Below, piece after piece: positions 4,223-27,743 of a stretch of 44,465 nt of DNA. Origin of the DNA: Casimicrobiaceae bacterium (lineage in GTDB: Bacteria; Pseudomonadota; Gammaproteobacteria; Burkholderiales; Casimicrobiaceae). The notes beneath the pieces are model-generated. The model saw only the letters and a program-made list of their open reading frames with translations, ran no database searches and was not told where the DNA came from. Both the position numbers and the translations under genes were made by a program. The stretch spans positions 1 to 44,465 of the forward strand of contig DATNAR010000258.1 in assembly GCA_035607385.1 (NCBI GenBank), in the 5' to 3' direction. Position 1 is the first letter of the stretch; each line of letters opens with the position of its first letter.

Positions 4223-7200
4223 ATGATTGCCAATATCCGAGAGGCGCCGGCACGCACATTCGGCACGAACACTCCCATACCTGAAGTGCAGTTGCTTTCG
4301 AACGGCAGATACCACGTCGTGATTACGAACGTGGGCGGCGGCTACAGCCGTTGGCAAGAGCTGGCGGTGACTCGCTGGCGCGACGATGCGACCTGCGATA
4401 GCTGGGGATTCTTTTGCTACGTCCGCGATGTCGTGACCGGGGAGTTCTGGTCCACGACCTATCAGCCGACGCTGGTGCGCGCGGAGCCTGACGAGGCGGT
4501 TTTCTCGCCGGGGCGCGCGACGTTCCGCCGTCGCGTCCACGACATCGAGACCCGTACCGAAGTCGTCGTTGCACCAGAAGACGATGTCGAGCTACGTCGA
4601 ATCCACGTTGCCAATCGGGCCTCGATACGCAGATCTCTCGATATTACGAGTTATGCGGAAATCGTACTCGCACATCCGGCGACGGACGCGGCACATCCGG
4701 CGTTCGCCAAGCTCTTTGTCGAGACCGAGGTGGTCCGCGAGCATCAGGCGATTCTGAGCACCCGCCGCCCGCGTGCCCCCGACGAGCCGACGGTTTGGAT
4801 GTTTCATCGGCTCGCCGCGTACCGGCCGGCGGGCGACGATGTCTCGTATGAAACGGACCGCCTGCGCTTCATCGGTCGCGGGCACTCGGCGGCGGATCCG
4901 CAAGCGATGCGCGATAGCGCTGCCTTGTCGGGAAGCGCGGGTCCCGTCCTCGACCCGGTGGCGGCGATCCGCACCCGGATCACGCTCGATGCGGGTGAAA
5001 CCGCGACCGTCGATCTGATCAGCGGCGTCGGCCAGTCGCGCGCGACGTGCATGGCCCTGATCGCGAAATGCCAGGAGCGCAACTACGTCCATCACGCTTT
5101 CGATGCGGCAGCGGACAAGGGCCGAGCGATCCTGACCAAGCTCGGTGTCGCCGAGCCCGACACGGAGCGCTTTGCGAGCGTCGCGAGCTCGGTCATCTAC
5201 GCCAACGCGTCGTTGCGCGCCGCCCCGGGCGTTATCGGCCGGAACCGCTTGGGCCAGTCCGGCCTGTGGGGCCACAAGATCTCCGGCGATTTGCCGATCG
5301 TTCTATTGCAGATTGCCGATCCGGCAAAGACGGAACTGCTGCGTCAGCTCGTCGCTGCCCACGCTTACTGGCGCTGGCACGGGCTGGCGGTGGACCTGGT
5401 AATTCTGGTCGAAGCGCGCAGCGGCAGCGAGGCGCCGCGGCGCGAGCAGGTCAGCAAGCTGATTGCCGCCGCCGACGGCGCCGGACGGCTCGATCAAGCG
5501 GGCGGCATATTCGTGCGAACCACCGACGAGATCGACGATGCCGATCGCATCCTGCTCGAGAGCGCAGCGCGCGTCGTGCTCAGCGAAGACGATGGTTCGC
5601 TGGCGCAGGCGCTCGAGCGGCGGCGCACCGCAGCGATCTCGATCCCGGCATTGGCGAGCGCGGGCAAACCTGTCTACGGGTCGCCGCAGGATGTCGAGTG
5701 GCCTCGGCGCGACTTGATCTTCAGCAACGGTCAGGGCGGTTTCGCTGCGGACGGCCGCGAGTACGTCATCACGTCGTCACGCTCACGGATGACGCCGGCA
5801 CCCTGGGTAAACGTCCTGGCCAATCCATCGTTCGGAACGCTGGTCTCGGAGAGCGGCAGCGCCAGTACCTGGAGCGAGAATGCGCACGAGTTCCGTCTCA
5901 CGCCGTGGTCGAACGACCCGGTCGGCGATGCCAACACCGAGGCGTATTACCTTCGCGACGAGGAGAGCCGCCGCGTCTGGTCGCCCACGCTGCTTCCGCG
6001 CGGCGGCGCAGGTCCATACGTCGCGCGGCACGGCTTCGGTTACAGCGTCTTCGAGCACAGCGAGGAGGGAATCGATTCCGAACTGTGCACTTATGTAGCG
6101 ATCGACGCGCCGGTCAAGTTTGCCGTCTTGCGGCTGTCCAATCGCTCGGGTCGCGCGCGCCGCCTGTCGGTCACCGGCTACCTCGAATGGGTGCTCGGTG
6201 ACGAGCGAGAGAAGACGATGATGCACATAGTCACCCAGCTCGATGACGACAGCGGCGCGCTGTTCGCGCGCAATCCCTATAGCGCCGACTTCGGCGGCAG
6301 CGTCGCGTTTTTCGAAGGCGGCGATGATCGGGAGCGGAGTTTCTGTGGCGATCGGACCGAGTTTCTCGGGCGCAACGGCACGCTCCGCGATCCCGCCGCC
6401 ATGGCGCGCTCGCGGCTTTCGGGCACGATCGGCGCAGCGCTAGATCCGTGCGCCGCCATCCAATTGCCGTGCGCATTGGGCGCTGGCAAGACGCGTGAGA
6501 TCGTCTTCCTGCTCGGCGCCGGCCGCAGCGTCGAGCAGGCCCGCGATCTGGTTCGACGCTGGCGAGGATCCGCCGCCGCGCACGATGCGCTGGAAGCGGT
6601 GCGGCGCTACTGGCGGCAAACGCTCGGCGCGGTGCAGGTCAAAACGCCGGACGCTGCCCTCGACATCCTGGCCAACGGCTGGCTGGTGTACCAGATTCTG
6701 GCCTGCCGGATGTGGGGACGCAACGCGTTCTACCAATCGAGCGGCGCGTTCGGATTCCGCGATCAGCTTCAGGACGCGATGGCCTTGATTCATGCTGAGC
6801 CGGAGCTGGTGCGCGAGCACCTGTTGCGCTGCGCATCGCGCCAATTCGCCGAAGGCGATGTCCAGCATTGGTGGCATCCGCCGTCCGGCCGCGGCGTGCG
6901 CACCCGTTGTTCGGACGATTACCTGTGGTTGCCATTCGCGACGTGCCGATACGCGCTGGCCACCGGCGACACCGGCGTACTCGATGAGACCGTCCCTTTC
7001 CTGGAGGGCCGCGCGCTCGCGGCGGGCGAGGACTCGTACTACGATCTGCCCAGGCAGTCGCCGGACGCGGCCGATCTCTACCAGCATTGTGTGCGCGCCA
7101 TCGAGCGCGGGCTCTCGTTCGGCGCGCATGGCTTGCCACTGATGGGCACCGGCGACTGGAACGACGGCATGAACCTGGTCGGCGCCGGCGGCAAGGGCGA

Positions 7201-8137
7201 GAGCGTCTGGCTCGGCTTCTTCCTTTGCTCGGTGCTGACCCAATTCGGCGAGCTGGCGCGGCGGCGCGATGACGTCTCGTTTGCGCAGCGTTGCGGCAGC
7301 GAAGCGGCTCGCTTGCGCGACAGCATCGAGCGGAGCGCCTGGGATGGTGCCTGGTATCGCCGCGCCTATTTCGACGACGGCTCGCCGCTGGGCTCAGCGC
7401 AAAACGCCGAGTGCCGGATCGATTCGATCGCGCAGAGCTGGTCGGTGCTGTCGGGCGCCGGCGAAGCGCAGCGCGCGCGCGCCGCCATGGACGCCGTGGA
7501 CCGCCGGCTCGTCGACCGGGAACACGCCCTGGTCCAGTTGCTGGCTCCGCCGTTCGACAAATTCGAACCCGATCCCGGTTACATCAAGGGATACCTGCGC
7601 GGTGTGCGCGAGAACGGCGGCCAGTATACCCATGCCGCGGTGTGGGCCGCGATGGCGTTCGCGGCGCTCGGCAACACCGACCGCGCGTGGGAATTGTTCA
7701 CCATGATCAATCCGATCAATCACGCGAAATCGGCGGATACGATCGAGCGCTACAAGACGGAGCCTTATGTCCTCGCGTCCGACGTCTACGCGCTGCCGCC
7801 GCACGCCGGCCGCGGCGGCTGGACCTGGTACACCGGTTCGGCCGGCTGGATGTACCGCTTCATCGTGGAATCGCTGCTGGGCTTGCGGCTCGATGTGGAC
7901 AAGCTGCACTTTGCACCCTGCCTGCCGGCGGACTGGACCTCGTTCAAGCTCGACTACCGGTATCGGCAGACGCTCTATCGCGTCAGCGTCCGGCAAATCA
8001 GCACCGCGGACGACGCGGTGCGAGTGACGCTGGATGGGGTCCGCCAGGTCGACCACGGTATTGCGCTGGCGGACGATCGCCTGGACCACGTCGTCGAAGT
8101 GATCATCCGTCGCGCACGCGATCAAGCGAGGAGATGA
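4223..8137 (+). CDS. Stand-alone GH94-family glycoside phosphorylase-like protein (candidate 1,2-beta-oligoglucan phosphorylase); paralog of the C-terminal half of the glucan synthase at 18921-27743
   Basis: 1304 aa. It is collinear with residues from about 1640 to the end of the 2940-aa ORF ('[22 protein letters not shown]' vs 'QLLSNGRLHVMVTAAGGGYSRW'). It carries '[10 protein letters not shown]', '[10 protein letters not shown]', '[11 protein letters not shown]', '[15 protein letters not shown]', as in cellobiose-phosphorylase-type enzymes. An in-frame TAG at 4139 means the ORF cannot extend upstream. Confidence 0.8.
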
Positions 8138-8139
8138 AA

Positions 8140-9168
8140 ATGCAGCTCGGCATGATCGGATTGGGACGCATGGGATCCAATATGGTCCGTCGCCTGACCC
8201 GGGGAGGCCACGGATGCGTGGTCTACGACACCAGCGCCAATGCCGTCGCGGAGGTGGCGCAGCACGGCGTCGTCGGGACGGCATCGCTCGAGGCTCTGGT
8301 CGCGGGCTTGGCCAAGCCGCGCGCCGTGTGGCTGATGGTGCCGGCGGCGGCAGTCGATCAGGCGCTGGCGCAGCTAACCCGGTTGCTCGAGGCCGGCGAC
8401 ATCGTCATCGATGGCGGCAACTCCTACTACCGCGACGATATCCGGCGCGCTGCCGAGCTGAAGGCAGAAAAGATTCACTACGTGGACATCGGCACCAGCG
8501 GTGGCGTGGCGGGGCTCGAGCGAGGCTACTGCCTGATGATCGGCGGCGAAAGAAGGATCGTCGAGCATCTGGCACCGATCCTGACGACGCTCGCCCCGGG
8601 TCGCGACGCCGCGCCGCGCACGCTCGGGCGCACGAAGCGGGACAGCACCGCCGAGCAGGGCTTCCTGCATTGCGGGCCGCACGGCGCCGGCCACTTCGTC
8701 AAGATGGTCCACAACGGCATCGAATACGGATTGATGGCCGCGTACGCCGAGGGACTGAACATCCTGCGCAATGCCGAGGCCGGCAAGCGCGCGGGCACCT
8801 CCGATGCGGAGACGGCGCCGCTGCGCGACCCGCAGTACTACCAGTATGAGTTCGACCTGCCTGACATCGCCGAGGTGTGGCGCCGGGGCAGCGTGATCGG
8901 CTCGTGGCTGCTCGATCTCACCGCCAGCGCGCTCGCCGCCGATCCGGGTCTTGCGAACTATAGCGGGCGCGTCTCCGATTCCGGTGAAGGGCGATGGACG
9001 ATTGCGGCTGCGATCGACGAAGCCGTGCCCGCCCCGATTCTGAGCGCCGCGCTGTATGAACGCTTCAGCTCGCGCAAAGACGCGGATTTCGCCAACAAAA
9101 TATTGTCGGCCATGCGGCATGAGTTCGGCGGCCACGTTGAAAAGCCCGCCAAGCAAGCGAAGGCCTGA
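8140..9168 (+). CDS. gnd: 6-phosphogluconate dehydrogenase (decarboxylating), short Gnd-like form
   Basis: '[19 protein letters not shown]' Rossmann N-terminus, plus 'GGNSYYRDD', '[19 protein letters not shown]', '[24 protein letters not shown]'. GGAG lies 6 nt before the ATG at 8140. An alternative ATG at 8134 overlaps the upstream stop (ATGA). Confidence 0.88.
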
Positions 9169-9170
9169 AG

Positions 9171-10556
9171 ATGGCGGAGCCTGCTTCGGATGCGCTGGTC
9201 TTTTTTGGGGCGACCGGCGATCTGGCCTACAAGCAGATTTTCCCGGCGCTGCAGGCGATGATCCGGCATGGCCGCCTCGACCTGCCGATCATCGGCGTGG
9301 CAAAGTCGAGTTGGAATCTCGACCAGCTTAAAGGTCGTGCGCGCGACAGCCTGCAACACCACGGCGGCGTGGACGACGACGCGTTCGCGAAGCTCTCGGC
9401 GCGACTCCGATACATCGATGGCGATTACGCTGACGACGCGACGTATCGACGCCTGCGCCAGACCTTGGGCGAGGCCGCGCGGCCGTTGCACTACCTGGCC
9501 ATCCCGCCGAGCATGTTCGCCACCGTCGTCGAGGGTCTGGCGAAGGCGGGTTGCGCCAGGAGCGCCCGCGTGGTCGTCGAAAAACCCTTCGGGCGCGATC
9601 TCGCCTCCGCGCAGTCCCTCAACCAGACGCTGGCGCAGGTCTTTGCCGAGTCGGCCGTGTTTCGCATCGACCATTACCTCGGCAAGGAACCGGTCGAGAA
9701 TCTGCTCTACTTCCGCTTTTCCAATAGCTTTCTCGACCCGATCTGGAACCGGCACCATGTCGCCCGCGTGCAGATCACCATGGCCGAGAACTTCGGCGTG
9801 CAGGGGCGAGGCCGCTTCTATGACGAAGTGGGCGCGATTCGCGACGTGGTGCAGAATCACCTGCTGCAGATCACCGCGTTGCTGGCGATGGAGGCGCCGG
9901 TGGGGCGCGGGCCGGACCGCCTGCGCCAGGAGAAGTTGCGGGTCTTCAAGGCGATGCGGCCCATTGCAGCGGACGAAGTGGTGCGCGGCCAATTCCGCGG
10001 CTATCGCGATGAGAAGGGCGTGAAGCCCGACTCGCAGGTCGAGACCTTCGCCGCGCTGCGGCTTCATATCGACACCTGGCGCTGGGCGGGCGTCCCCTTC
10101 GATATCCGGGCCGGCAAGCGGCTCCCGGTCACGGCGACCGAAGTCACGGTCGAAATGAAGCAGCCGCCCCACGCCGTCTTCGATCAAGGCCGGGTCGGCG
10201 AGAACTATTTTCGTTTCCGATTGAGCCCCGAGGTCCTTATCTCGCTGGGTGTGCGGGTCAAGGTGCCCGGCGAAGCGATGGTGGGCGAAGACGCCGAGCT
10301 GGTCCTGCATCGTCATCCCGGCGACGAAATGATGCCGTATGAACGTTTGCTGGGTGACGCGCTCCACGGCGACGCGTCGCTGTTCACCGGCGCCGAGTGC
10401 GTCGAGGAAGCCTGGCGCGTGGTCGATCCGATCCTTGGCGACGCGGCGCCGGTCGCCGAATACGAACCGGATACCTGGGGACCGGCGGCCGCCGGGCGCA
10501 TCATTGCTGGCGAAGGCGGCTGGCACAACCCGGCGTCGACCGAGGCCGCGCCGTGA
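9171..10556 (+). CDS. zwf: Glucose-6-phosphate 1-dehydrogenase
   Basis: 461 aa with 'LVFFGATGDLAYKQIFPAL', 'EKPFGRDLASAQSLN', 'RIDHYLGKEPVENLLYFRFSN', 'VQNHLLQI'. It starts 2 nt after the gnd stop. Confidence 0.93.
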   Translation: MAEPASDALVFFGATGDLAYKQIFPALQAMIRHGRLDLPIIGVAKSSWNLDQLKGRARDSLQHHGGVDDDAFAKLSARLRYIDGDYADDATYRRLRQTLGEAARPLHYLAIPPSMFATVVEGLAKAGCARSARVVVEKPFGRDLASAQSLNQTLAQVFAESAVFRIDHYLGKEPVENLLYFRFSNSFLDPIWNRHHVARVQITMAENFGVQGRGRFYDEVGAIRDVVQNHLLQITALLAMEAPVGRGPDRLRQEKLRVFKAMRPIAADEVVRGQFRGYRDEKGVKPDSQVETFAALRLHIDTWRWAGVPFDIRAGKRLPVTATEVTVEMKQPPHAVFDQGRVGENYFRFRLSPEVLISLGVRVKVPGEAMVGEDAELVLHRHPGDEMMPYERLLGDALHGDASLFTGAECVEEAWRVVDPILGDAAPVAEYEPDTWGPAAAGRIIAGEGGWHNPASTEAAP

Positions 10557-11245: not shown

Positions 11246-11278
11246 ATGAAAGATGCCCGGAATTCCAGGAGATGACTG

Positions 11279-12370: not shown

Positions 12371-12381
12371 CGGAGCCGACG

Positions 12382-18920: not shown

Positions 18921-21900
18921 TTGCCCTTGGACAGGTCCGAGAAAATCGACGTACGAACCGCGGCGGCAGCGCTGAGCGCCCGGAGTAAGGAGGGTCTGCA
19001 AAAACTCCTTCGCCCGATCGCGCACGTCGGCGCTCGACTGGCCACGCCGGCCGTTCCCGTCGATGGCCCGCCTCTTCGGGCGGAGCTGTTCACCGCCGAG
19101 CAGATGGCGCAGCACGGTCGCGCGCTGGCCGCGTTGCACAAGCGGCGAGACTCGCCGGGACCCGATCGACTCCTCGCGCGCCTTGCCGACAATGACGCCA
19201 TCCTGGCGAAGACGTGCGGGCTGCTGATGGCTACCGTCAAGGCGGACCAGCGCCTTACGCCGGCTGCCGAGTGGCTGCTCGATAATTTCTATCTCATCCA
19301 AGAGCAGATACGCACTGCGCGACGCGACCTGCCCAAGGGCTACAGCGAGAAGCTTCCGCAGCTCTCGACAGGTCCGTCGGCGGGGCTGCCGCGCGTCTAC
19401 GATATTGCGCTGGAAACGGTGTCGCACGGCGACGGTCGCGTCGACTCGGCGAGCCTGCGTGGGTTCATCGCTGCCTACCAGACCGTGGCGCCGCTGATGC
19501 TCGGCGAATTGTGGGCCGTGCCGATCATGCTGCGGCTCGCCTTGATCGAGAACCTGCGCCGGGCGGGGACGCGCCTCTTCGCCGGCAGGACCGATCGCAG
19601 CCTGGCCAACGCGTGGGCCGAACGGATGATCGAAGTGGCGGCCGAGGATCCGAAGAGCGTCATCCTGGAGATCGCCGACATGGCGCGCACGCGGCCTCCG
19701 CAGAGCAGCGCATTCGTCGCCGAGTTCGCCCGCCGCCTTCAGGGGCAAGGTGCGGCGCTGGCGCTGCCGCTCACCTGGCTCGAGCAGCTCCTTTCCGAGT
19801 CCGGACAGACGATCGAGAATCTGGCCCAGGAGGAAAATCGGCAGCAGGCTGCGGATCAGGTGTCGATCAGCAACAGCATCGGCAGCCTTCGCTTTCTCGC
19901 GGCGACCGATTGGCCCGAATTCGTCGAGACCATGAGTCTGGTCGAGCAGACGCTGCGCCGCGATCCCGCCCGGGTTTACGCAAACATGGATTTCACGACC
20001 CGCGACCGATGCCGTCATGCCGTGGAACGGATAGCGCTGCGCAGCCCGCGCTCGGAGCTCGAGGTGGCGCGACTCGCGGTTGAGCTGGCCGAAGCGAGCC
20101 TGCGCCGGCAATCGGCCGACGAACGTTATGGGCACGTGGGTTTCTACCTCATCGATCGCGGTGTCCCGGCTCTCGAAAGCGCAGCAGGAATGCGCGTGCG
20201 GTACCTGCACGCGCTCAGGCGCGGGAACTTCCCGTCGTCCCTGCCGATATACCTCGACGGCATTATGCTGATCACCGCCGTCTTCACGGCCGCGCTGGTG
20301 GTCAACGCCAGTGCGGAGGGCGTCCGCGGCTGGATGCTCGCCGCCACCGCGCTGCTGTCGCTTCTTTGCGCGAGCCAGCTGGGCGTCGCGGTGGCGAACT
20401 GGGTCGCGACCGTGCTGTGCGCGCCGCGCGCGCTGCCGCGAATGGACTACTCGAAGGGCGTCCCGACCGAGGCGCGAACACTCGTCGTGGTGCCTTCCAT
20501 GCTGGCCAGCGCCGTTCATGTCGACGAGCTGCTGCAGGCGCTGGAGGTTCGATTTCTTGCCAACCGGAGCGCCAACGTCCACTTCGGTCTGCTGACCGAT
20601 TTTGTCGACGCCGCCGCAGAATCGGTCCCCCACGACGATATGGTCCTGCAGCTCGTGCAACGCGGCATCGAGACGCTGAATGAAAAATACCCGCAGTCGG
20701 CAGCAGAGGGCGACGCCTTCTACCTGTTCCACCGCCCGCGGCGCTGGAATGGACAGGAAAAGCTGTGGATGGGTCACGAACGCAAGCGCGGGAAGCTCGC
20801 GGACCTCAATGCGCTCCTGCGCGGCCGTGGCGAGGGTCGCTTCCTGCGCATCGTCGGCGCCATCGCCGCACTTCGCGACGTCCGCTATGTGATTACGCTC
20901 GACACCGATACGCTGTTACCCAAAGATGCCGTCCGTGAGCTGGCCGCCGCCATGGCGCATCCGCTCAATCGGCCTCGTTACGACGAGCGGCGTCAATGCA
21001 TCGTCGAAGGTTACGGGATACTGCAGCCACGCATCGCGCCCAGTCTCATCGGCAGCAACCGGTCGCGGTACGCGCGGCTCTGGGGAAGCGAGCCCGGTGT
21101 CGATCCCTATACGCGAGCGATCTCGGATGTCTACCAGGACCTGTTCGGCGAAGGCTCGTTCATCGGCAAGGGCATCTACGATGTCGATGCTTTCGAAGCC
21201 ACGCTCAAGGATCGTTTCCCGGAAAACAGGATATTGAGCCACGATCTGCTGGAGGGATGCTATGCCCGCTCGGGGCTGGTGAGCGACGTCCAGCTCTATG
21301 AGGAGTATCCACCGCGCTACCTGGTCGATGTCAGCCGGCGCCTGCGCTGGATCCGGGGCGACTGGCAGATCGCCGGCTGGCTGCTCCCGCGCGTGCCGGT
21401 ACCCGCGGACCAGCGGGCGCGCAATGTTCTTTCCGCGTTGTCGCGCTGGAAAATCTTCGACAATCTCCGCCGGAGCCTCGTCCCCATCGGCCTGGTTGCG
21501 CTATTGATCTTCGGCTGGACGACCCTGGCTTCGTCTGCGCTGTGGACGGTCGCGGTGCTGGGTATCATCCTGATCCCGCCGCTGCTGGTCTCGATCCTCG
21601 AGATGCTGCGCAAGCGCGACGATGTCTTGTTGAGCCAGCACCTTTTCGCTTCGCTGCGCTCGATGGCGCAGCACTTTGCGCAAGTGGCGTTCAGCCTGTC
21701 ATGCCTGCCGTACGAGGCGTTCATCAGCCTCAACGCCATCGTGCGGGCGGGATGGCGGATGCTGGTCAGCCATCGCCGCTTGCTGGAGTGGACTCCGTCG
21801 GCGCAGGCAAACAACGGCGCCAGCGATCTATGGACCTCGATCCGCGCCATGTGGATTGCGCCTTTCGTCGGATTGGCAACGATCGCGTATCTGTTTGCCT

Positions 21901-24900
21901 TCAACCGCGAGGCGCTGGACGTTGCGTTGCCCATCCTGTGCCTCTGGCTGGCGGCTCCGGGACTGGCCTGGTGGACAAGCCTGCCGTACCTTGACCGGCC
22001 GGCGCAACTATCCTTCGAGCAAGTACGACTGCTGCGCAAGCTGGCCCGCAAGAACTGGCATTATTTCGAGACGTTCGTCGGGCCCGACGACAACTGGCTG
22101 CCACCCGACAACTATCAGGAGCAGCCGGTGGCGATCGTCGCCCATCGCACGTCGCCGACCAACATCGGGCTGGCGTTGCTCGCCAATCTCGCGGCCTACG
22201 ATCTGGGCTATCTAACGATGGGGGAAATGATCGAGCGGACGTCGGCGACCTTTTCCACGATGGCCGACATGGCGCGCCACAACGGTCACTTCTTCAACTG
22301 GTACGACACCCAGGCGCGGCAACGGCTTTCGGGGTACGTGTCGACCGTCGACAGCGGCAACCTCATCGCCCACCTGCTGACGCTGCGCGCCGGCCTGCTG
22401 ACCTTGGCCGACGAGGCGATTCTCAGCCTCCGCTGGTTCGATGGCTTGCGCGATACGTATCGGCTGCTGGTCGACGTCGTCGGCAATAACGCGGTTGTGG
22501 GGCTCGCCGACTTCGAGCGCTGCCTGGGCGCCGCGCGAGCTGCGTCGCCGGCAAGCCTTGATTCAACCTGGTGGCACCTCAACGTCTTGTCGACCTCGGC
22601 GCGCGCCGTTGCCGCGGCAATCGACTCGTCGCCAGCTGCCCCGGACGAGGCGAAGCGTTGGAGCAAGGCTCTGGTCCGGCAGTGCAAGGCCGGCGTGGAC
22701 GAGCTCGCGCTGCTGGCTCCCTGGGTGGCAAGCGGAGATGGCCAGGCACCGGAAGCGGCGCCTCGCGTCGTCGCGGCGTCCGCGCTGCCGACGCTGCGCG
22801 AGCTTGCCCTGCGCGGTAGCGATCCCTCGACGTCCGGCGAGCCAGCCGTCGCCGCCCGCGAGCGGATCGTCGCCATCGACGCTTTGATCGCACAGGCCAC
22901 CGAGTTCTCGACGGTCGATTATGAGTTTCTGTTCGACCGCGGCCGCCGCCTCCTCTCCATCGGCTATGACGTCGTCGAGCAACGGCGGGACGCGAGCTTT
23001 TACGACTTGCTGGCCTCGGAGGCACGGGTGTGCAGCTTCGTCGGCATCGCGCAAGGCAAGCTGCCGCAGGAGAACTGGTTCGCCCTGGGTCGCATGTTGA
23101 CGCGCGCCGGCGGCACGCCGACCTTGCTCTCCTGGAGCGGGTCGATGTTCGAGTACCTGATGCCCTCGCTGATCATGCCTTCGTTTGCCAATACGCTGCT
23201 CGATCAGACTTACAAGGCGGCGGTGCAGCGGCAGATAGAGTACGGCCGCCGTCGCGGCGTAGCGTGGGGAATCTCCGAATGTGCCTACAATACCGTCGAC
23301 GTCGCGCTCAACTACCAGTACCGCGCCTTCGGCGTGCCCGGGCTTGGCCTCAAGAGCGGGCTCGCCGAGGATCTCGTTATCGCGCCGTACGCCTCAGCGC
23401 TCGCGCTCACGGTGAAGCCTGTCGAAGCGTGCGCCAATATCGAGCGGATGATCGACGCCGGCTTTGCCGGGCGGTTCGGGCTCTACGACGCGATCGATTA
23501 CACGCCCTCCCGCGTGCCGCGCGGGCAACCCTACGCCATCGTGCAGGCTTTCATGGCGCACCACCAAGGCATGACGCTGCTGGCACTGCTCCACGTGCTC
23601 GAAGACGGCGCGATGCAGCGCCGATTCGAGTCCGATCCCTTGTTCCAGTCGGCGATGCTCCTGCTACAGGAGCGGGTGCCCAGGGCAACCGGATTTTATG
23701 CCCGGGCCGCGGAGCTTGCCGACTTGCGGCCGAGCACGCCGATCGCCGGCGTGGCGCTTCGCACCATCGGCAATCCCGAGACGCGGTCACCCGAGCTGCA
23801 GTTGCTGTCCAACGGCCGTTTGCACGTGATGGTGACCGCCGCCGGCGGCGGCTACAGCCGGTGGGGAAACTTTCAGATTACGCGCTGGCGCGAGGATCCG
23901 ACCCGCGACTCATGGGGTGCGTTCTGCTACATCCGCGACGTCAGCAGCGGCGCGTTCTGGTCGGCCGCCCATCAACCTACCGGCAAGCGCGCCGACCACT
24001 ACGAAGCGATATTTTCGGAATCGCGCGCGGAGTTTCGCCGCCGCGATGGTGAATTCGAAACCCACACCGAAATCGCGGTTTCGCCCGAGGACGATATCGA
24101 ACTGCGCCGCATCCGCATCAGCAACCGCGCGCGTTCGTCGCGTACGATCGACGTCACCAGCTATGCCGAAGTGGTCCTGGCGCCGCCCGCCGCCGATGCC
24201 CAGGCGCCGGCGTTCGGCAACCTGTTCGTGCAGACGGAGATTTTGCCGCAGAAGAACGCCATCCTGTGCACCCGCCGCCCGCGCTCCGCAAGCGAAGCCG
24301 TTCCCTGGATGTTCCATTTGATGAAAGTGCACGGCGACGATGGCGGTGCCGTCTCGTATGAAACCGACCGCGGCCGCTTCATCGGCCGTTGCAATACCAC
24401 GGCCGCGCCGGCGGCGATGCTGCAAAGCGCGCCGCTATCGGGCAGCGCGGGCTCGGTGCTCGACCCGGTGGCCGCGATCCGCAGGGGCGGCCAGGTGAAG
24501 GCCGGGGCGTCGCTCACGATCGATATCGTGACCGGCATCAGCGAGACGCGCGAAGGGTGTCTGGCCCTGATCGACAAGTACCAGGATCCGAGCCTTGCCG
24601 AACGGGTCTTCGATCTGGCCTGGACGCACAGCAGCGTGACCTTGCGCCAGCTCAACGCCAGCGAAGCCGAAGCGCAGCTTTACAACCGCCTTGCCGCCGC
24701 CGTGCTCTACGCCAATCCCGCGCTGCGTGCGGATCCGTCGGTCATCAAGAAAAACCGCCGCGGTCAATCGGGGCTGTGGGGCTATGCGATCTCGGGAGAC
24801 CTGCCGATCGTTCTGCTGCAGATCGAGGACGCGGCCAATATCGATTTGGTGCGGCAAATGATCCGGGCGCACGCCTACTGGCGGCAAAAGGGATTGGCGG

Positions 24901-27743
24901 TCGACCTCGTGATATGGAACGAAGATCATTCCGGCTACCGGCAGGCGCTGCACGACCAGATTTCCGGCCTGATTGCGGCGGGCGTCGAAGCCCATCTGCT
25001 CGATCGGCCGGGCGGGATATTCGTCCGCCGCGGGGAGCAGATCGCCGACGAGGACCGCTTGCTGTTCCAGACCGTCGCGCGCGCCGTCATCGTCGATCGC
25101 CTGGGCACGCTCGCCGAGCAGGTTGGCCGCCGCCTGCCGCTCGATGCGGCGATCGCGCGTCCCGCACCGCCGGCGGCACGTCGCCGTGAAGCAGCTCCGA
25201 TCGAGGAGCGGCCGCGGCGGGCGCTGGCGTTCGACAACGGGCTCGGCGGCTTTACCGACGACGGGCGGGAATACGTCATCGTCACCGATCGCGACACCCG
25301 GACGCCGACGCCATGGTCCAATGTGCTGGCCAACCCGGATTTCGGCTGTGTCGTCTCGGAGAGCGGCCAAGCCTACACCTGGAGCGAGAACGCCCACGAG
25401 TTTCGCCTTACGCCCTGGCAAAACGACCCGGTCGGCGATGCGGCCGGCGAGGCGTTTTACATCCGGGACGAGGAGAGCCGCTACTACTGGTCGCCGACGC
25501 CGCTCCCGGCCAAGGGCGCGACGCCCTATACCACCCGGCACGGATTCGGCTATAGCGTGTTCGAGCACGCGGAGGAGGGCGTGGCGAGCGAACTGCAGGT
25601 CTTTGTCGCGCTCGACGCCCCGGTCAAGTTCGCCGTGCTGAAGCTGCGTAACGAAAGCGAGCGCAGCCGCCGTCTTTCGCTGACCGGGTACGTCGAATGG
25701 GTGCTTGGCGATCTGCCCGCCAAGACCGGCATGCACGTGATTACCGAGTTCGACGCGCGCAGCGGCGTTCTGTTTGCCCGCAACCCGTATAACAGCGAGT
25801 TTCCGCGACGAACGGCATTTTTCGACGTCGACGCGCCGACGCGCAGCGTGACCGGCGACCGCTGCGAATTTATCGGCCGTTCCGCAGCGCTCGACCACCC
25901 GGCGGCAATGGTCGCAGCGGATCTTTCCGGCCGGACCGGCGCGGCGCTTGACCCCTGCGGAGCGATCCGGGTTGCTTGTCAGCTTGGTCCCGGCGAAGCG
26001 CGGGAATTCGTGTTCCGTCTCGGCGCCGGTCGCGATGCAGACGACGCGGCCGCGATCGCGCTACGCCATCAGGGACGCGGCGCTGCCAGCGATGCGCTGG
26101 AAAAGGTCAGGCAATACTGGCAGCGCACCCTTGGCGCCGTACAGGTGTCGACGCCGGACAGCGGCCTGAATTTCCTCGCCAATGGCTGGCTGGTCTACCA
26201 GGTGCTGGCTTGCCGGCTGTGGGGGCGCAGCGGGTACTACCAGTCGGGCGGCGCCTTCGGGTTTCGCGACCAGCTTCAGGATGTGATGGCCCTGCTGCAC
26301 TGCGAGCCGCGGCTTGCCCGCGAGCACTTGCTGCGTTGCGCCGCGCACCAGTTTATCGAAGGCGACGTGCAGCATTGGTGGCACCCGCCGCTGGGGCGGG
26401 GCATCCGGTCGCTGTGCTCCGACGACTTCCTCTGGCTGCCGTTGGCGGCATGTCGCTATGTCGGCGTCACCGGTGATGCCGGTATCCTCGATGAGCCGGT
26501 CCCTTTCCTCGAGGGTCGCCCGCTCGCCGCCGGCGAAGACTCGTACTACGACCTGCCCGCCCGCTCGGAAACGGCAGCGAGCCTGTACGATCATTGCGTC
26601 CGCGCCTTGCTCCACGGGATGCGCTATGGAGCGCACGGATTGCCGTTGATGGGCTCCGGTGACTGGAACGACGCCATGAATCTGGTCGGCGTCGAAGGCA
26701 AGGGCGAGAGCGTATGGCTCGCATTCTTCTTGCACACGGTACTCGAGGAGTTTGCCGAAATCGCACGCCAGCGCAATGACTCCGCCTTGGTCGAGCGCTG
26801 CGATCAGGAAGCGCAAGGTCTGCGCAGCAGCATTGCCGCGCACGGCTGGGATGGCGCCTGGTATCGCCGCGCGTACTTCGACGACGGTACGCCATTGGGC
26901 TCGGCGACCGATCCGGAATGCCGCATCGATTCGATTGCGCAGAGCTGGGCAGTTCTGGCCGGGATCGACGACGGCGGTCGCCCGCGGCTTGCGATGGAGG
27001 CCGTCGATCGACGGCTCGTTGCGCGCGGCGAAGGTCTGGTGCGATTGCTTGAGCCGCCTTTCGACGCCTCGTCGCTCGAACCCGGATACATCAAGGGATA
27101 CGCGCCCGGGATCCGCGAAAACGGCGGTCAATATACGCACGCCGCGATCTGGGCGGCAATGGCCTTCGCCGCGCTGGGCGACGGCACGCGCGCCGAGGAG
27201 TTGTTGTCCATCATCAACCCGATCAACCATGCCAAGACGGCTGCCGCGGTCGCCGTGTTCAAGACCGAGCCCTTCGTGGTCCCCGCAGACGTCTACGCTT
27301 GCGCGCCGCACACGGGCCGCGGCGGCTGGACCTGGTATACCGGCTCCGCAGGATGGATGTACCGTTTGATCGTCGAATCCCTGATCGGGCTCACGGTTCG
27401 CGCGGACACGCTGTCGATAGCGCCATGCTTACCTCCGACCTGGCCGCGGGTGGAACTGGATTACCGGTACAAGAACACCCTCTACCATATTGAAATCTGC
27501 CGTGCTTCCGGAATGCCCGCCGATCTGCAGGGCCACAGGCTTCGGGTCGTCCTGGACGACATGGACGTGAGCGAGCAGCACATCAAGTTGGTGGACGATC
27601 GCCGGAGCCATCTCGTTCAGGTGACCTTGGTGTCCGCCGAAGACAGTCAGTGGCGCGAGCGAGACGTTGCCGCTCGAGGGGCAGCCGCAAGTGTCGAGCA
27701 CAAGACCCACCGGGAAACGGGCGGTGACGCTGCCCGCGGTTAG
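18921..27743 (+). CDS. cgs: Cyclic beta-1,2-glucan synthase (NdvB/ChvB/Cgs type; GT84 domain, membrane segments, middle glucanase-like domain, C-terminal GH94 domain)
   Basis: 2940 aa. The N-terminal region has 'TPAAEWLLDNFYLIQEQI'. The GT84 block has 'VRYVITLDTDTLLPKD', 'GYGILQPR', 'SHDLLEGCYARSGLVSDV', 'RWIRGDWQI' (about 20400-21400). Hydrophobic helices flank it. The middle domain has 'HRTSPTNIGLALLA', 'VSTVDSGNL', 'WSGSMFEYLMP', 'YQYRAFGVPGLGLK' (about 22000-23600). The GH94 half spans about 23800-27600. The only available start is TTG at 18921 (in-frame TAG 21 nt upstream), so the start codon is uncertain. Confidence 0.9.
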   Translation: MPLDRSEKIDVRTAAAALSARSKEGLQKLLRPIAHVGARLATPAVPVDGPPLRAELFTAEQMAQHGRALAALHKRRDSPGPDRLLARLADNDAILAKTCGLLMATVKADQRLTPAAEWLLDNFYLIQEQIRTARRDLPKGYSEKLPQLSTGPSAGLPRVYDIALETVSHGDGRVDSASLRGFIAAYQTVAPLMLGELWAVPIMLRLALIENLRRAGTRLFAGRTDRSLANAWAERMIEVAAEDPKSVILEIADMARTRPPQSSAFVAEFARRLQGQGAALALPLTWLEQLLSESGQTIENLAQEENRQQAADQVSISNSIGSLRFLAATDWPEFVETMSLVEQTLRRDPARVYANMDFTTRDRCRHAVERIALRSPRSELEVARLAVELAEASLRRQSADERYGHVGFYLIDRGVPALESAAGMRVRYLHALRRGNFPSSLPIYLDGIMLITAVFTAALVVNASAEGVRGWMLAATALLSLLCASQLGVAVANWVATVLCAPRALPRMDYSKGVPTEARTLVVVPSMLASAVHVDELLQALEVRFLANRSANVHFGLLTDFVDAAAESVPHDDMVLQLVQRGIETLNEKYPQSAAEGDAFYLFHRPRRWNGQEKLWMGHERKRGKLADLNALLRGRGEGRFLRIVGAIAALRDVRYVITLDTDTLLPKDAVRELAAAMAHPLNRPRYDERRQCIVEGYGILQPRIAPSLIGSNRSRYARLWGSEPGVDPYTRAISDVYQDLFGEGSFIGKGIYDVDAFEATLKDRFPENRILSHDLLEGCYARSGLVSDVQLYEEYPPRYLVDVSRRLRWIRGDWQIAGWLLPRVPVPADQRARNVLSALSRWKIFDNLRRSLVPIGLVALLIFGWTTLASSALWTVAVLGIILIPPLLVSILEMLRKRDDVLLSQHLFASLRSMAQHFAQVAFSLSCLPYEAFISLNAIVRAGWRMLVSHRRLLEWTPSAQANNGASDLWTSIRAMWIAPFVGLATIAYLFAFNREALDVALPILCLWLAAPGLAWWTSLPYLDRPAQLSFEQVRLLRKLARKNWHYFETFVGPDDNWLPPDNYQEQPVAIVAHRTSPTNIGLALLANLAAYDLGYLTMGEMIERTSATFSTMADMARHNGHFFNWYDTQARQRLSGYVSTVDSGNLIAHLLTLRAGLLTLADEAILSLRWFDGLRDTYRLLVDVVGNNAVVGLADFERCLGAARAASPASLDSTWWHLNVLSTSARAVAAAIDSSPAAPDEAKRWSKALVRQCKAGVDELALLAPWVASGDGQAPEAAPRVVAASALPTLRELALRGSDPSTSGEPAVAARERIVAIDALIAQATEFSTVDYEFLFDRGRRLLSIGYDVVEQRRDASFYDLLASEARVCSFVGIAQGKLPQENWFALGRMLTRAGGTPTLLSWSGSMFEYLMPSLIMPSFANTLLDQTYKAAVQRQIEYGRRRGVAWGISECAYNTVDVALNYQYRAFGVPGLGLKSGLAEDLVIAPYASALALTVKPVEACANIERMIDAGFAGRFGLYDAIDYTPSRVPRGQPYAIVQAFMAHHQGMTLLALLHVLEDGAMQRRFESDPLFQSAMLLLQERVPRATGFYARAAELADLRPSTPIAGVALRTIGNPETRSPELQLLSNGRLHVMVTAAGGGYSRWGNFQITRWREDPTRDSWGAFCYIRDVSSGAFWSAAHQPTGKRADHYEAIFSESRAEFRRRDGEFETHTEIAVSPEDDIELRRIRISNRARSSRTIDVTSYAEVVLAPPAADAQAPAFGNLFVQTEILPQKNAILCTRRPRSASEAVPWMFHLMKVHGDDGGAVSYETDRGRFIGRCNTTAAPAAMLQSAPLSGSAGSVLDPVAAIRRGGQVKAGASLTIDIVTGISETREGCLALIDKYQDPSLAERVFDLAWTHSSVTLRQLNASEAEAQLYNRLAAAVLYANPALRADPSVIKKNRRGQSGLWGYAISGDLPIVLLQIEDAANIDLVRQMIRAHAYWRQKGLAVDLVIWNEDHSGYRQALHDQISGLIAAGVEAHLLDRPGGIFVRRGEQIADEDRLLFQTVARAVIVDRLGTLAEQVGRRLPLDAAIARPAPPAARRREAAPIEERPRRALAFDNGLGGFTDDGREYVIVTDRDTRTPTPWSNVLANPDFGCVVSESGQAYTWSENAHEFRLTPWQNDPVGDAAGEAFYIRDEESRYYWSPTPLPAKGATPYTTRHGFGYSVFEHAEEGVASELQVFVALDAPVKFAVLKLRNESERSRRLSLTGYVEWVLGDLPAKTGMHVITEFDARSGVLFARNPYNSEFPRRTAFFDVDAPTRSVTGDRCEFIGRSAALDHPAAMVAADLSGRTGAALDPCGAIRVACQLGPGEAREFVFRLGAGRDADDAAAIALRHQGRGAASDALEKVRQYWQRTLGAVQVSTPDSGLNFLANGWLVYQVLACRLWGRSGYYQSGGAFGFRDQLQDVMALLHCEPRLAREHLLRCAAHQFIEGDVQHWWHPPLGRGIRSLCSDDFLWLPLAACRYVGVTGDAGILDEPVPFLEGRPLAAGEDSYYDLPARSETAASLYDHCVRALLHGMRYGAHGLPLMGSGDWNDAMNLVGVEGKGESVWLAFFLHTVLEEFAEIARQRNDSALVERCDQEAQGLRSSIAAHGWDGAWYRRAYFDDGTPLGSATDPECRIDSIAQSWAVLAGIDDGGRPRLAMEAVDRRLVARGEGLVRLLEPPFDASSLEPGYIKGYAPGIRENGGQYTHAAIWAAMAFAALGDGTRAEELLSIINPINHAKTAAAVAVFKTEPFVVPADVYACAPHTGRGGWTWYTGSAGWMYRLIVESLIGLTVRADTLSIAPCLPPTWPRVELDYRYKNTLYHIEICRASGMPADLQGHRLRVVLDDMDVSEQHIKLVDDRRSHLVQVTLVSAEDSQWRERDVAARGAAASVEHKTHRETGGDAARG

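Follow-up and report, generated by a model that had tools for sequence, protein, structure and literature searches.

Why should genes for making and breaking β-1,2-glucan lie interleaved with pentose-phosphate pathway (PPP) genes? The question is raised by a window of 44,465 nucleotides (the whole stretch of DNA that was analyzed), in which eleven plus-strand genes follow one another in the order GH94, gnd, zwf, HAD, tal, pgi, DUF2090, pgm, GH144, pgl and cgs, with tkt divergent. A sequence-only reading of this locus had proposed a cytoplasmic cycle, in which glucan is made, cut, phosphorolyzed and fed into the oxidative PPP for storage or NADPH supply. Our analysis points to a module, accessory and laterally mobile, that turns β-1,2-glucan over inside the cell, a reading to which we assign a probability of roughly 0.5. 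We found no published description of intracellular β-1,2-glucan turnover feeding the PPP in the literature; one genome-statistics paper has given a "carbon storage" label to the same Pfam families (PMC7895386).

Organization of the array

The genes had been described as co-directional and closely spaced, and so they proved to be. They span positions 4223-27743 on the plus strand, with successive gaps of 2, 2, -4, 33, 11, -4, 39, 80, -4 and 113 nt. All four of the start/stop junctions reported earlier were found: ATGA at 8134-8137, GTGA at 10553-10556, ATGA at 14034-14037 and ATGA at 18082-18085. At the first of these, gnd most likely starts at 8140, with 8134 as the alternative: there is a GAGGAG upstream, and on identical metagenome contigs the gene is called with a product of 342 aa. 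We count this tight packing, with its three 4-nt overlaps, in favor of a turnover module. A terminator scan of positions 3800-19000 returned six terminator-like sites, a total below the shuffle expectation. Five lie within coding sequence and the sixth (11269-11256, minus strand) in the HAD-tal gap; the scan detected no plus-strand site in the gaps between array genes. Packing of the eleven genes appears operon-like, and they may be co-transcribed.

The array and tkt diverge from an intergenic region of 284 bp (3939-4222), the presumed promoter region for both. Neither a sigma-70-like site nor an FNR box was found within it. One copy of a 45-nt repeat lies in this region (4078-4122), and the other at 43985-44029.

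Predicted glucan-active enzymes

We assigned domains by Pfam and NCBIfam profile searches. The first array gene (4223-8137, plus strand) encodes a free-standing GH94 glycoside phosphorylase of 1304 aa, a family placement upheld by Pfam, which recovers two supersandwich domains plus the catalytic domain (E 3e-166 and 1e-125). The sequence-only reading had pointed to one characterized GH94 member that acts on 1,2-β-oligoglucans. The 1304-aa protein is not close to that type of enzyme: the match to 5H3Z reaches only E 4e-6, in the catalytic domain, and on this basis we rejected membership of the oligoglucan phosphorylase subfamily (Lin1839/LpSOGP). Residues 20-1267 match residues 1539-2796 of Agrobacterium tumefaciens cyclic β-1,2-glucan synthase (Cgs) in a single alignment (E 5e-302), and the protein is 59% identical to residues 1612-2910 of the window's own Cgs. 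Its architecture, a supersandwich and an (α/α)6 catalytic domain, is collinear with the GP1-RFL-GP2-GP3 subdomains of Cgs, whose phosphorylase (GP) module begins at residue 1536 in A. tumefaciens (PMC10901819). Judged by these alignments, the 1304-aa protein is a complete stand-alone paralogue of the C-terminal GP module of Cgs.

The Asp of its GDWNDG motif (about residue 981) aligns with D492 of chitobiose phosphorylase (ChBP), the His of QYTH with ChBP H644 and the Thr-Gly of YTGSAGW with ChBP T709-G710; we take D492 to be the catalytic Asp, and H644 and T709-G710 the phosphate-site residues, of GH94 structures. All are intact. Neither a transmembrane segment nor a leader was found in the protein. 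GH94 enzymes are inverting phosphorylases, and hence convert β-glucan to α-glucose-1-phosphate (α-G1P). We predict that the protein is a cytoplasmic β-1,2-glucan phosphorylase yielding α-G1P.

A second candidate degrader, encoded at 16787-18085 (plus strand), is a leaderless GH144 β-1,2-glucanase homologue of 432 aa. Its membership of GH144 was confirmed by PF10091 (GH144 fold, an (α/α)6-barrel catalytic domain; 7e-86) and by full-length similarity to Xanthomonas XcSGL (8XUL; E 5e-123, 47% identity over 425 aa); CpSGL (5GZH) matches at E 1e-39. Residues E188, F233 and Y314 align with XcSGL E239, F286 and Y367, the first of which is Q in the crystal chain, an E239Q mutant. In the SGL clan, these are the general acid Glu, a Phe near the nucleophilic water and a stacking Tyr (PMC12102758). 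The product is a predicted β-1,2-glucanase, with a substrate specificity that we infer from sequence. As had been claimed, it lacks a leader peptide: no earlier start codon is available between the preceding stop and the start of the ORF, the alignment pairs residue 7 with residue 42 of the crystallized XcSGL chain, and no hydrophobic N-terminal segment is present. Among 66 GH144 homologues, each taken with its longest possible N-terminus, none has a recognizable signal peptide. The window's GH144 protein cannot carry one and is predicted to be cytoplasmic.

The last array gene (18927-27743, plus strand) encodes Cgs, in which Pfam finds a GT2-like domain, a PF10091-like middle domain and GH94. 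It matches A. tumefaciens Cgs (8RF0/8RF9) with 2042 bits and the cyclization domain of TiCGS (8WY1) at 1e-121, in keeping with its earlier placement; one polypeptide combines GT84, a GH189-type cyclase domain and a GH94 module. The large size noted before also stands, but not the length of 2940 aa, since gene calls on identical metagenome contigs give 2938 aa from 18927 rather than from TTG 18921. Hydrophobic windows fall into three clusters (residues 439-498, 849-896 and 972-1015), read here as three probable pairs of transmembrane helices (six). In the A. tumefaciens structure, all soluble Cgs domains are cytoplasmic (Sedzicki et al. 2024, PMC10901819).

The exporter

In domain composition (GT84, cyclase and GH94, with about six transmembrane segments), the synthase belongs to the same family as that of the ChvB/NdvB-ChvA/NdvA (Cgs-Cgt) system of Agrobacterium, Sinorhizobium and Brucella. 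Unlike in that system, an ABC exporter is linked neither here nor in related loci, the synthase gene is set among those of predicted cytoplasmic degraders and the PPP, and most carriers live freely in soil and fresh water and come from many phyla, rather than being host-associated alphaproteobacteria. The absence of an exporter gene from the window, noted previously, was borne out. Neither Pfam scans of large ORFs nor a six-frame motif scan detected an ABC_membrane-type exporter in the window; Pfam found only Liv-type importer components, and the single ABC signature in the motif scan belongs to a Liv-type ATPase gene (39011-39724). A ChvA-type exporter is linked in none of the 80 GH144-centered loci described below, nor in 4 sampled cgs contexts. 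The exporter may be encoded elsewhere, unlinked, beyond the 44-kb window.

An exporter gene need not adjoin the synthase gene, as in Brucella, and this leaves room for salvage or quality control. Most glucan would then depart through an unlinked Cgt/ChvA-type ABC exporter, GH144 and GH94 would only recycle aborted linear chains, mis-sized rings or released oligosaccharides to G1P, and the PPP genes would adjoin as general hexose-phosphate handlers. Cgs products are indeed known as periplasmic (PMC11842490), and the GP active site is dispensable for cyclic glucan synthesis (PMC10901819), so trimming-type functions exist. For salvage, however, the investment is large, as pgm, zwf, pgl, gnd, tal, tkt and pgi (or xfp and ackA) travel along across phyla and plasmids. 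The GH144 and GH94 pair is also found with no cgs within 10 kb, and an exporter is linked in none of about 90 loci. We consider salvage rather unlikely.

Sugar-phosphate genes and direction of flux

The claim of a complete oxidative branch holds, with zwf, pgl and gnd all present, accompanied by tal, tkt and pgi. Transketolase is encoded by tkt (1818-3938, minus strand; Pfam Transketolase_N, Transket_pyr and Transketolase_C), which adjoins the stand-alone GH94 gene in four related loci. On the plus strand, gnd (8140-9168) encodes a short decarboxylating 6-phosphogluconate dehydrogenase (TIGR00872, 417 bits; NF007161, 466 bits), zwf (9171-10556) glucose-6-phosphate dehydrogenase (TIGR00871, 476 bits; also Pfam), tal (11279-12370) transaldolase (NF002881, 456 bits), pgi (12382-14037) glucose-6-phosphate isomerase (NF001211, 841 bits), pgm (15033-16706) α-D-phosphoglucomutase (TIGR01132 equivalog, 843 bits) and pgl (18082-18813), which overlaps the GH144 stop codon, 6-phosphogluconolactonase (TIGR01198, 173 bits). 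Neither rpe nor rpi turned up in the scanned ORFs.

Two further plus-strand genes belong to this set. The HAD-family hydrolase gene (10553-11245; PF00702) overlaps the zwf stop codon, and its product matches PDB 2P11 ("hypothetical protein") at E 7e-106; the gene is kept between zwf/gnd and tal in eight related loci. The DUF2090 gene (14034-14993; PF09863 at 1e-34) overlaps the pgi stop codon and recurs beside pgm or GH144 in six loci. Its product matches DKGP and tagatose-bisphosphate aldolases weakly in NCBIfam and PDB and looks aldolase-like, with a probable class I (LacD/IolJ-like) aldolase fold; an aldolase role has been put forward for DUF2090 (PMC9007349). Pgm, Gnd, HAD and Tal are ~65-80% identical across phyla, with some copies plasmid-borne, and the sugar-phosphate genes look like accessory, laterally mobile genes rather than core housekeeping ones.

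On the turnover reading, Cgs, a membrane protein, would make cyclic β-1,2-glucan from UDP-glucose. The leaderless GH144 endo-glucanase would open and fragment rings or linear chains in the cytoplasm, and the free-standing copy of the Cgs GH94 module would remove glucose units with phosphate, releasing α-G1P. Phosphoglucomutase would convert this to glucose-6-phosphate (G6P), which Zwf, Pgl and Gnd would take to ribulose-5-phosphate and reduced nicotinamide cofactor, with carbon recycled by Tal, Tkt and Pgi, and probably also by the DUF2090 aldolase. The anomers fit, because an inverting GH94 would yield α-G1P and the adjacent Pgm is α-specific (TIGR01132). Having come through our in silico tests, this route is the best reading of the array.

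The suggestion of NADPH supply stands only in part. Gnd matches TIGR00872, an NAD(+)-dependent equivalog, and related loci often have phosphoketolase and acetate kinase in place of zwf/gnd, which makes mobilization of energy or carbon an equally likely role.

Phosphorylases are reversible, and oligoglucan phosphorylase has been used in vitro for β-1,2-glucan synthesis. Run in reverse, GH94 could make linear β-1,2-glucan or primers from G1P supplied by Pgi and Pgm, both of which are encoded, and GH144 could trim the products; the module would support or replace UDP-glucose-dependent synthesis. A GH94 paired with a GH144-fold protein does mirror the cyclase and phosphorylase half of Cgs. However, cellular phosphate normally favors phosphorolysis, and Zwf, Pgl and Gnd (Xfp and AckA in relatives) are consumers, not sources, of hexose and pentose phosphates. 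The acid residue E188 is also kept, aligned with E239 of the inverting hydrolase XcSGL, and this hydrolase, not the retaining GH189 cyclization domain, is the closest solved relative of the GH144 protein (PMC12102758). A biosynthetic direction is, in our estimation, improbable.

Gene neighborhoods across phyla

The synteny is not unique to this genome; the linkage recurs across many genera, phyla and plasmids. We surveyed neighbors within 10 kb of close GH144 homologues (70-91% identity) in 80 species. Such homologues are carried by at least 80 species of Pseudomonadota, Acidobacteriota, Chloroflexota, Bdellovibrionota, Chlamydiota and other groups. At least one pgm or PPP gene is found at 32/80 loci, pgm itself at 17/80 (usually immediately upstream of GH144), phosphoketolase at 24/80, and cgs or a stand-alone GH94 at 10/80. 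In each of the five stand-alone GH94 contexts examined, the neighbors are gnd-zwf-HAD(-tal, tkt, pgm); GH144 also lies within 10 kb in three, and cgs in one. The synthase gene is itself only loosely linked, at about 10/80 GH144 loci, and just one of four random contexts in a cgs-centered sample contains PPP or phosphoketolase genes. Plasmid-borne examples include pPNAP02 of Polaromonas CJ2, with tal-pgm-xfp-ackA-tkt, HAD, gnd and DUF2090-GH144, and a Variovorax WDL1 plasmid, which also has a GH144 homologue locus. Sinorhizobium meliloti pSymA (16 records) carries xfp, a histidine phosphatase, a stand-alone GH94 and GH144. In some related loci, two of them plus one on a Criblamydia plasmid, α-glucan phosphorylase replaces GH94, so the Pgm and PPP genes there could serve glycogen.

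These neighborhoods are mosaic and rich in unrelated cargo, with heavy-metal P-type ATPases in 33/80 loci and multicopper oxidases, transposases and integrases also around. Together with cross-phylum identities of 70-80%, which point to lateral transfer, this would fit glucan and sugar-phosphate genes that hitch-hike in a genomic island with no functional coupling. Yet the pgm-GH144 and GH94-gnd-zwf-HAD adjacencies outlast many rearrangements of the surrounding genes, and start/stop overlaps tie glucan genes to PPP genes. The biochemical fit is also specific, from β-glucan through α-G1P and an α-specific Pgm to G6P for Zwf. Mere hitch-hiking seems quite improbable, and the proposed intracellular phosphorolytic turnover of β-1,2-glucan feeding the PPP is well supported by comparative genomics.

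Several points tell against turnover nonetheless. If synthase and degraders were expressed together, the cycle would be futile in the absence of regulation. Most GH144 homologues lack cgs within 10 kb, cyclic β-1,2-glucan is classically exported to the periplasm, and only one oligoglucan phosphorylase is biochemically defined, to which the stand-alone GH94 bears a remote similarity. The window also lacks galU, β-glucosidase and glucokinase, the latter two of use for residual sophorose. The cytoplasmic cycle proposed earlier is supported in part, by enzyme families, intact catalytic residues, leaderless enzymes and recurrent synteny, and is qualified by the GH94 subtype, the accessory look of the PPP genes and the loose linkage of cgs.

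Comparison with glucan utilization and storage systems

In the β-1,2-glucan utilization loci of Listeria innocua and Lachnoclostridium phytofermentans, an oligoglucan phosphorylase is accompanied by an ABC importer and a GH3 β-glucosidase; CpSGL of Chitinophaga is a secreted enzyme. The array shares with such loci the sequence of endo-glucanase and then GH94 phosphorolysis to α-G1P, and its glucanase resembles the secreted Xanthomonas GH144. By this parallel, the array could serve catabolism of imported environmental β-1,2-glucan or sophoro-oligosaccharides. Known utilization loci likewise employ a cytoplasmic GH94, part of an ABC permease gene is present at the edge of the window (2-439), and cytoplasmic glucanases with no signal peptide exist (PgSGL1 and PgSGL2; PMC12102758). 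Here, however, the GH94 is of the Cgs phosphorylase-module type, and the glucanase is leaderless, unlike XcSGL, which has a signal peptide (PMC12102758). No solute-binding protein, permease pair or GH3/GH1 β-glucosidase is linked in the window, and no sugar importer, solute-binding protein or β-glucosidase is among the frequent neighbor families identified at the 80 GH144 loci. The synthase gene, moreover, lies within the same array. Carriers also include organisms labeled Nitrosospira, Thiobacillus and Nitrobacter, all chemolithoautotrophic genera. An endogenous substrate is the most plausible, and import very improbable.

Synthase and phosphorylase genes are also paired in glg and similar storage-polymer operons. 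The array thus resembles glycogen metabolism (glgBXCAP; GlgP and Pgm) in encoding the two together, and its predicted route, from phosphorolysis to α-G1P through Pgm and G6P to Zwf and Gnd, parallels the glycogen-fed oxidative PPP shunt of autotrophs. It differs in its polymer, which would be β-1,2-linked and largely cyclic, rather than α-1,4/1,6-linked, with a membrane enzyme synthesizing it from UDP-glucose, and in its enzymes, whose families are unrelated to those of glycogen metabolism. In Calvin-cycle-positive genomes, PF17167, PF06165, PF10091, NAD-dependent Gnd and Zwf are jointly enriched, and the same Pfam families were flagged together with glycogen phosphorylase; the authors read this as carbon-storage capacity plus an oxidative pentose-phosphate shunt (PMC7895386). 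The turnover module, if real, would account for GH94 and PF10091 tracking carbon-storage genes in autotroph genomes.

Cyclic β-1,2-glucans have so far been treated as periplasmic or secreted, and a 2025 review lists osmotic adaptation, symbiosis and virulence, and iron storage as their roles (PMC11842490). The module would give them a further role inside the cell, in storage or turnover. By analogy with glycogen, β-1,2-glucan would be an endogenous reserve or protectant, beside or in place of its periplasmic role. More speculatively, and with some doubt on our part, it may serve free-living members of many bacterial phyla as a widespread cytoplasmic carbohydrate reserve or protectant, made by Cgs, mobilized by a mobile GH144-GH94-Pgm module and fed to a PPP shunt or a phosphoketolase-acetate kinase route. 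If so, the oxidative shunt would refill ribulose-5-phosphate and reductant, for example in autotrophs, and the phosphoketolase-acetate kinase branch would provide ATP with no electron acceptor in anoxia or dormancy.

Universal stress proteins, acetate kinase, alcohol dehydrogenases, CBS proteins and PHB-related genes occur in related GH144 loci, a content that recalls the low-oxygen-activated (lxa) locus of Burkholderia cenocepacia (PMC3721108). Glucoamylase, phosphoglucomutase, G6P dehydrogenase and transaldolase go unmentioned in the main text of that paper. The likeness to lxa and similar hypoxia or dormancy islands is one of gene content only; a hypoxia regulator site was not found upstream of the window's array.

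Two uncharacterized enzyme subfamilies, the predicted cytoplasmic GH144 and the stand-alone Cgs-type GH94, are set out here as biochemical targets. Culturable carriers include Polaromonas naphthalenivorans CJ2, Variovorax sp. WDL1, Collimonas antrihumi, Candidimonas nitroreducens and Sinorhizobium meliloti SM11, Rm41 and GR4.

Composition of the array

Pfam and NCBIfam searches of the 44,465-bp window gave eleven plus-strand genes (4223-27743) and a divergent tkt (1818-3938), and they agree with every gene assignment of the sequence-only reading. In order, the genes encode a stand-alone GH94 phosphorylase (4223-8137; two supersandwich domains and a catalytic domain), Gnd of the short type, Zwf (TIGR00871), a HAD hydrolase (PF00702 only, generic), Tal (NF002881), Pgi (NF001211), a DUF2090 protein (PF09863), an alpha-phosphoglucomutase, Pgm (TIGR01132, 843 bits), a GH144-like protein (PF10091), Pgl (TIGR01198) and Cgs, a synthase of cyclic beta-1,2-glucan (18927-27743). 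Intergenic gaps run from -4 to 113 nt throughout, and the four start/stop overlaps that had been reported are present (ATGA at 8134, GTGA at 10553, ATGA at 14034 and ATGA at 18082). The start of gnd is most likely 8140, the position that gene callers picked on identical metagenome contigs. A role in NADPH supply had also been proposed. Gnd scores above the cut-off for the NAD(+)-dependent equivalog and also matches an NCBIfam subfamily model named NADP-dependent, and hence such a role is not established.

The HAD hydrolase gene (10553-11245) overlaps the zwf stop codon, and its product closely matches PDB 2P11 (E 7e-106), deposited as a 'hypothetical protein'; the module consistently includes the gene, sited between zwf or gnd and tal. 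The DUF2090 protein (14034-14993) is a stand-alone, class I aldolase-like protein without the IolC fusion that marks the inositol-pathway form. DUF2090 has been proposed to be an aldolase (PMC9007349). In some related loci (L036, L044, L045, L083), a class I fructose-bisphosphate aldolase lies near the module where DUF2090 is undetected, a hint that DUF2090 may act as an aldolase of the FBP or SBP type.

The stand-alone GH94 protein, Cgs and the glucanase

Pfam and matches to solved structures placed the three carbohydrate-active candidates as predicted, as GH94, GH144-like (PF10091) and Cgs. The GH94 protein is not close to the characterised 1,2-beta-oligoglucan phosphorylase (5H3Z), which matched only at E 4e-6. 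From one end to the other, the 1304-aa protein matches residues 1539-2796 of A. tumefaciens Cgs (E 5e-302); the complete phosphorylase module, GP1-RFL-GP2-GP3, begins there at residue 1536 (PMC10901819). Against residues 1612-2910 of the window Cgs, its identity is 59% over 1300 residues, and at the DNA level the two regions form 70-75% identical repeats 19.5 kb apart. Its catalytic Asp, phosphate-site His and Thr-Gly align with D492, H644 and T709-G710 of chitobiose phosphorylase, and no TM segment was found in it. The window Cgs scores 2042 bits against A. tumefaciens Cgs and 1e-121 against the Thermoanaerobacter cyclisation domain (8WY1); its three clusters of hydrophobic windows are read as three putative pairs of TM helices.

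The best solved relative of the 432-aa GH144-like protein is XCC2207/XcSGL of Xanthomonas (8XUL; E 5e-123, 47% identity over 425 residues), which has been characterised biochemically as a GH144 beta-1,2-glucanase of narrow specificity (PMC12102758). The XcSGL residues that define the clan, E239, F286 and Y367 (PMC12102758), align with E188, F233 and Y314 of the window protein; the 8XUL chain has Q at position 239 because the E239Q mutant was crystallised. XcSGL has a signal peptide, whereas the window enzyme does not. The claim that the glucanase lacks a leader held up: its ORF opens at the first start codon past a stop, its N-terminus is not hydrophobic, and its residue 7 is the counterpart of residue 42 in the XcSGL crystal chain. 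In at least 44 of 66 close homologues the N-terminus could be extended by fewer than 20 residues, and no leader was seen in the twelve longest possible extensions in this set, where the extra sequence is Arg-rich read-through. Judged from sequence, the family memberships and conservation of catalytic residues are secure, and both GH144 and the stand-alone GH94 protein are firmly predicted to be cytoplasmic.

It had been noted that the window lacks an exporter gene. This agrees with our scans, which found no ABC_membrane-type domain and a single ABC signature (six-frame motif scan), in a Liv-type ATPase gene (39011-39724). Nor was a ChvA-like exporter linked in any of the GH144-centred loci or four cgs contexts described below. 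An exporter may be encoded elsewhere in the genome.

Recurrence and spread of the module

To survey GH144, one genome per GTDB species was scanned, which yielded >590 loci with a relative, and the best 80 were analysed. These 80 are 70-91% identical to the window protein, the closest (91%) being from a Casimicrobiaceae MAG. Other carriers among the best 80 are labelled Acidobacteriota, Chloroflexota, Gemmatimonadota, Planctomycetota, Bacteroidota, Chlamydiota and Bdellovibrionota, as well as alpha-, beta-, gamma- and delta-proteobacteria. For L010, L011, L053 and L064, binning error is an unlikely source of the phylum label, since these loci come from contigs of megabase size or from a complete chromosome.

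Neighbours within 10 kb were counted in the best 80 loci by tblastn with the window proteins and by clustering of neighbouring ORFs, with family representatives confirmed by Pfam. Linkage to the pentose-phosphate pathway (PPP) recurs, and the synteny is thus not unique to this genome. At least one pgm or PPP gene is present in 32/80 loci; pgm itself, mostly immediately upstream and co-directional, in 17/80; zwf in 9/80; and gnd and tal in 7/80 each. A cgs or stand-alone GH94 gene is found in 10/80, phosphoketolase in 24/80, acetate kinase and PPK2 in 11/80 each, and a heavy-metal P-type ATPase in 33/80. Further recurrent neighbours are universal stress proteins, N-type ATP synthase genes, class I aldolase and alpha-glucan phosphorylase, the last in place of GH94 in some loci. 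For most GH144 homologues cgs is absent within 10 kb, and no galU, beta-glucosidase or glucokinase gene is linked. The leaderless GH144 subfamily is 70-91% identical in at least 80 species of many phyla, and the Pgm, Gnd, HAD and Tal proteins of GH144-bearing loci are ~65-80% identical to those of the window; identities of this order across phyla indicate lateral spread of the module.

Around GH144, mosaic islands combine phosphoketolase, acetate kinase, PPK2, universal stress proteins and N-type ATP synthase operons with YHS/HMBD heavy-metal P-type ATPases, multicopper oxidases, CBS/ClC proteins and Zn-dependent alcohol dehydrogenases (L011, L015, L024, L028, L030, L032, L033, L036, L038, L043-L045, L047, L054, L059, L071, L092 and L098-L100). 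They look like a hypoxia/dormancy and metal-resistance island.

The stand-alone GH94 protein belongs to a populated family (~1300 aa, 64-74% identity), with sources that include Variovorax, Glaciimonas, Undibacterium, Herminiimonas and Acidobacteriota. Its gene adjoins gnd-zwf-HAD(-tal, tkt, pgm) in all five genuine contexts examined. GH144 lies within 10 kb in three of the five (L088, L089, L092), accompanied by cgs in L089 and by phosphoketolase and acetate kinase in L092. One further protein match, P0089, proved to be a Cgs truncated at a contig end and was left out of the sample. In Variovorax, a GH15 gene (TREH_N + Glyco_hydro_15; glucoamylase- or trehalase-like) sits between zwf and HAD (L087, 16502-18325; L098, 1-1338), a sign that the module's glucan-degrading part may be exchangeable.

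Four cgs contexts were sampled, picked for contig size alone. One contains GlgP, Xfp (phosphoketolase) and Tkt, and the other three have Hsp20, BON, CsbD or PFK neighbours; cgs itself is less tightly linked. A search with the Cgs N-terminus matched mostly fragments of 1000-1800 aa, and cgs is split into adjacent pieces in the inspected contexts L094-L096. Since pgm, pgi, DUF2090 and cgs all occur in adjacent pieces on long contigs (L089, L092, L094-L096), probably through frameshift errors of long-read assemblies, protein lengths from these loci are uninformative.

Copies also reside on plasmids. Plasmid pPNAP02 of Polaromonas naphthalenivorans CJ2 carries tal-pgm-xfp-ackA-tkt, HAD, gnd and DUF2090-GH144, and a copy is present on plasmid 3 of Variovorax sp. 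WDL1. On a Criblamydia sequanensis plasmid (L099, NZ_LK031773.1), a 73% identical GH144 homologue directly follows a site-specific integrase, with ackA, prs, a thymidine-phosphorylase-family gene, an ATP-cone gene, glgP, xfp and a P-type ATPase as neighbours. Sixteen Sinorhizobium meliloti pSymA records (including SM11, Rm41, GR4 and BL225C; locus L097, CP140933.1 1230444-1240741) contain CBS, adhP, xfp, histidine phosphatase, stand-alone GH94 and GH144, the last two annotated as 'glycosyl transferase' and 'glucoamylase family protein'; the matches did not include pSymA of strain 1021. These carriers offer a tractable genetic host that itself produces periplasmic cyclic glucan. Taken together, the module is tightly packed and laterally mobile, and its linkage recurs and resists rearrangement.

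A putative route from beta-1,2-glucan to the pentose-phosphate pathway

The genes are read most economically as a system for phosphorolytic turnover of beta-1,2-glucan inside the cell, and we put the probability of this core mechanism at about 0.5. Cgs would make glucan at the cytoplasmic face of the membrane, GH144 would open and then fragment it, and the free GH94 module would turn the chains into alpha-glucose-1-phosphate. GH94 enzymes are inverting, which fits the alpha-specific Pgm. Pgm would yield glucose-6-phosphate for oxidation by Zwf, Pgl and Gnd, and carbon would be recycled by Tal, Tkt and Pgi, possibly with the DUF2090 protein. Many relatives combine the GH144/Pgm pair with phosphoketolase and acetate kinase, a route that could convert glucan to acetate and ATP with no need for an electron acceptor. 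We infer specificity for beta-1,2-glucan, flux in this direction and co-transcription of the genes; a cytoplasmic glucan pool would presumably serve in storage.

Four other explanations bear on the same genes. The enzymes could salvage by-products of Cgs, which is unlikely, or the phosphorylase could be used in reverse, for synthesis, an idea that we find hard to credit. Equally doubtful is that the glucan and PPP genes are merely hitch-hiking, and catabolism of imported glucan has slightly poorer prospects still. Each accounts less well than intracellular turnover for the way in which a dedicated downstream pathway repeatedly travels with these genes.

All enzyme families of the module are known, and in kind it resembles storage-polysaccharide metabolism with a different polymer. 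A genome-statistics study found Calvin-cycle-positive genomes to be enriched in PF17167, PF06165 and PF10091 and also in NAD-dependent Gnd and Zwf; its authors saw in this a capacity for carbon storage and an oxidative pentose-phosphate shunt supplied by stored glycogen, and identified neither polymer nor gene module (PMC7895386). A 2025 review of the roles of cyclic beta-1,2-glucans covers symbiosis and pathogenesis, osmoregulation and iron storage (PMC11842490). Judged by title or abstract, searches of the accessible literature on beta-1,2-glucan and PPP returned no relevant paper linking both, and those on cytoplasmic GH144 with phosphoglucomutase, or on cyclic glucan synthase with a PPP operon, returned nothing relevant. 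We found no description of the combination of Cgs, leaderless GH144, a stand-alone version of the Cgs phosphorylase module, Pgm and a full set of PPP genes, of its cross-phylum, plasmid-borne distribution, or of the implied intracellular role. The GH144 neighbourhood of the carriers resembles in kind the lxa locus, a hypoxia/dormancy island of B. cenocepacia. We rejected lxa as the same system: the main text of PMC3721108 contains no glucoamylase, pgm or PPP genes and names none of the module's glucan/PPP genes.

Regulatory signals, edges and downstream genes

Scans for promoters, terminators and RNAs gave no regulatory clue. No FNR/Anr-type box was found in the promoter region (3939-4222) or upstream of the array; window-wide, there were 14 matches with up to two mismatches, against ~8 expected. 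A search for a sigma-70-like promoter was negative. Between 3800 and 19000, the terminator scan returned six sites, fewer than the shuffle expectation, five within coding sequence and the sixth on the minus strand in the HAD-tal gap (11269-11256); no plus-strand site falls in any gap between array genes. The Rfam search of the window returned one tRNA and nothing else. This tRNA-Met (CAT; 1063-1139) is followed by a terminator-like hairpin, and the tkt end of the cluster lies ~700 bp further on. The tRNA was rejected as an island integration site, since searches for an integrase and for a repeated copy of the tRNA 3' end found neither.

A 45-nt direct repeat (78% identical) has both copies in intergenic DNA, one in the tkt/GH94 divergent promoter region (4078-4122) and one upstream of a Liv-type ABC operon (43985-44029). 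By a rough estimate it is unlikely to arise by chance in 44 kb. It is missing from 96/96 related loci and is hence species-specific at most, and we discarded it as a shared operator. GC content, ~60-67% over the window, is 0.63-0.675 across the array (4001-28000) versus 0.58-0.63 past cgs (28001-44465); this drop is compatible with a foreign origin of the module, although not diagnostic of it.

Downstream of cgs lie genes for NnrS, a PAS histidine kinase, a quinol-type NO reductase, a PEP-mutase-like protein, a CMD-family protein, a PHB-depolymerase-like/DUF3141 protein and a Liv-type ABC importer. The gene for the DUF3141/PHB-depolymerase-like alpha/beta hydrolase (37740-39002) lies 10 kb downstream, and in L092 the module is adjoined by a DUF3141 protein (21737-23326). 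Such neighbours may constitute a second link to a reserve polymer.
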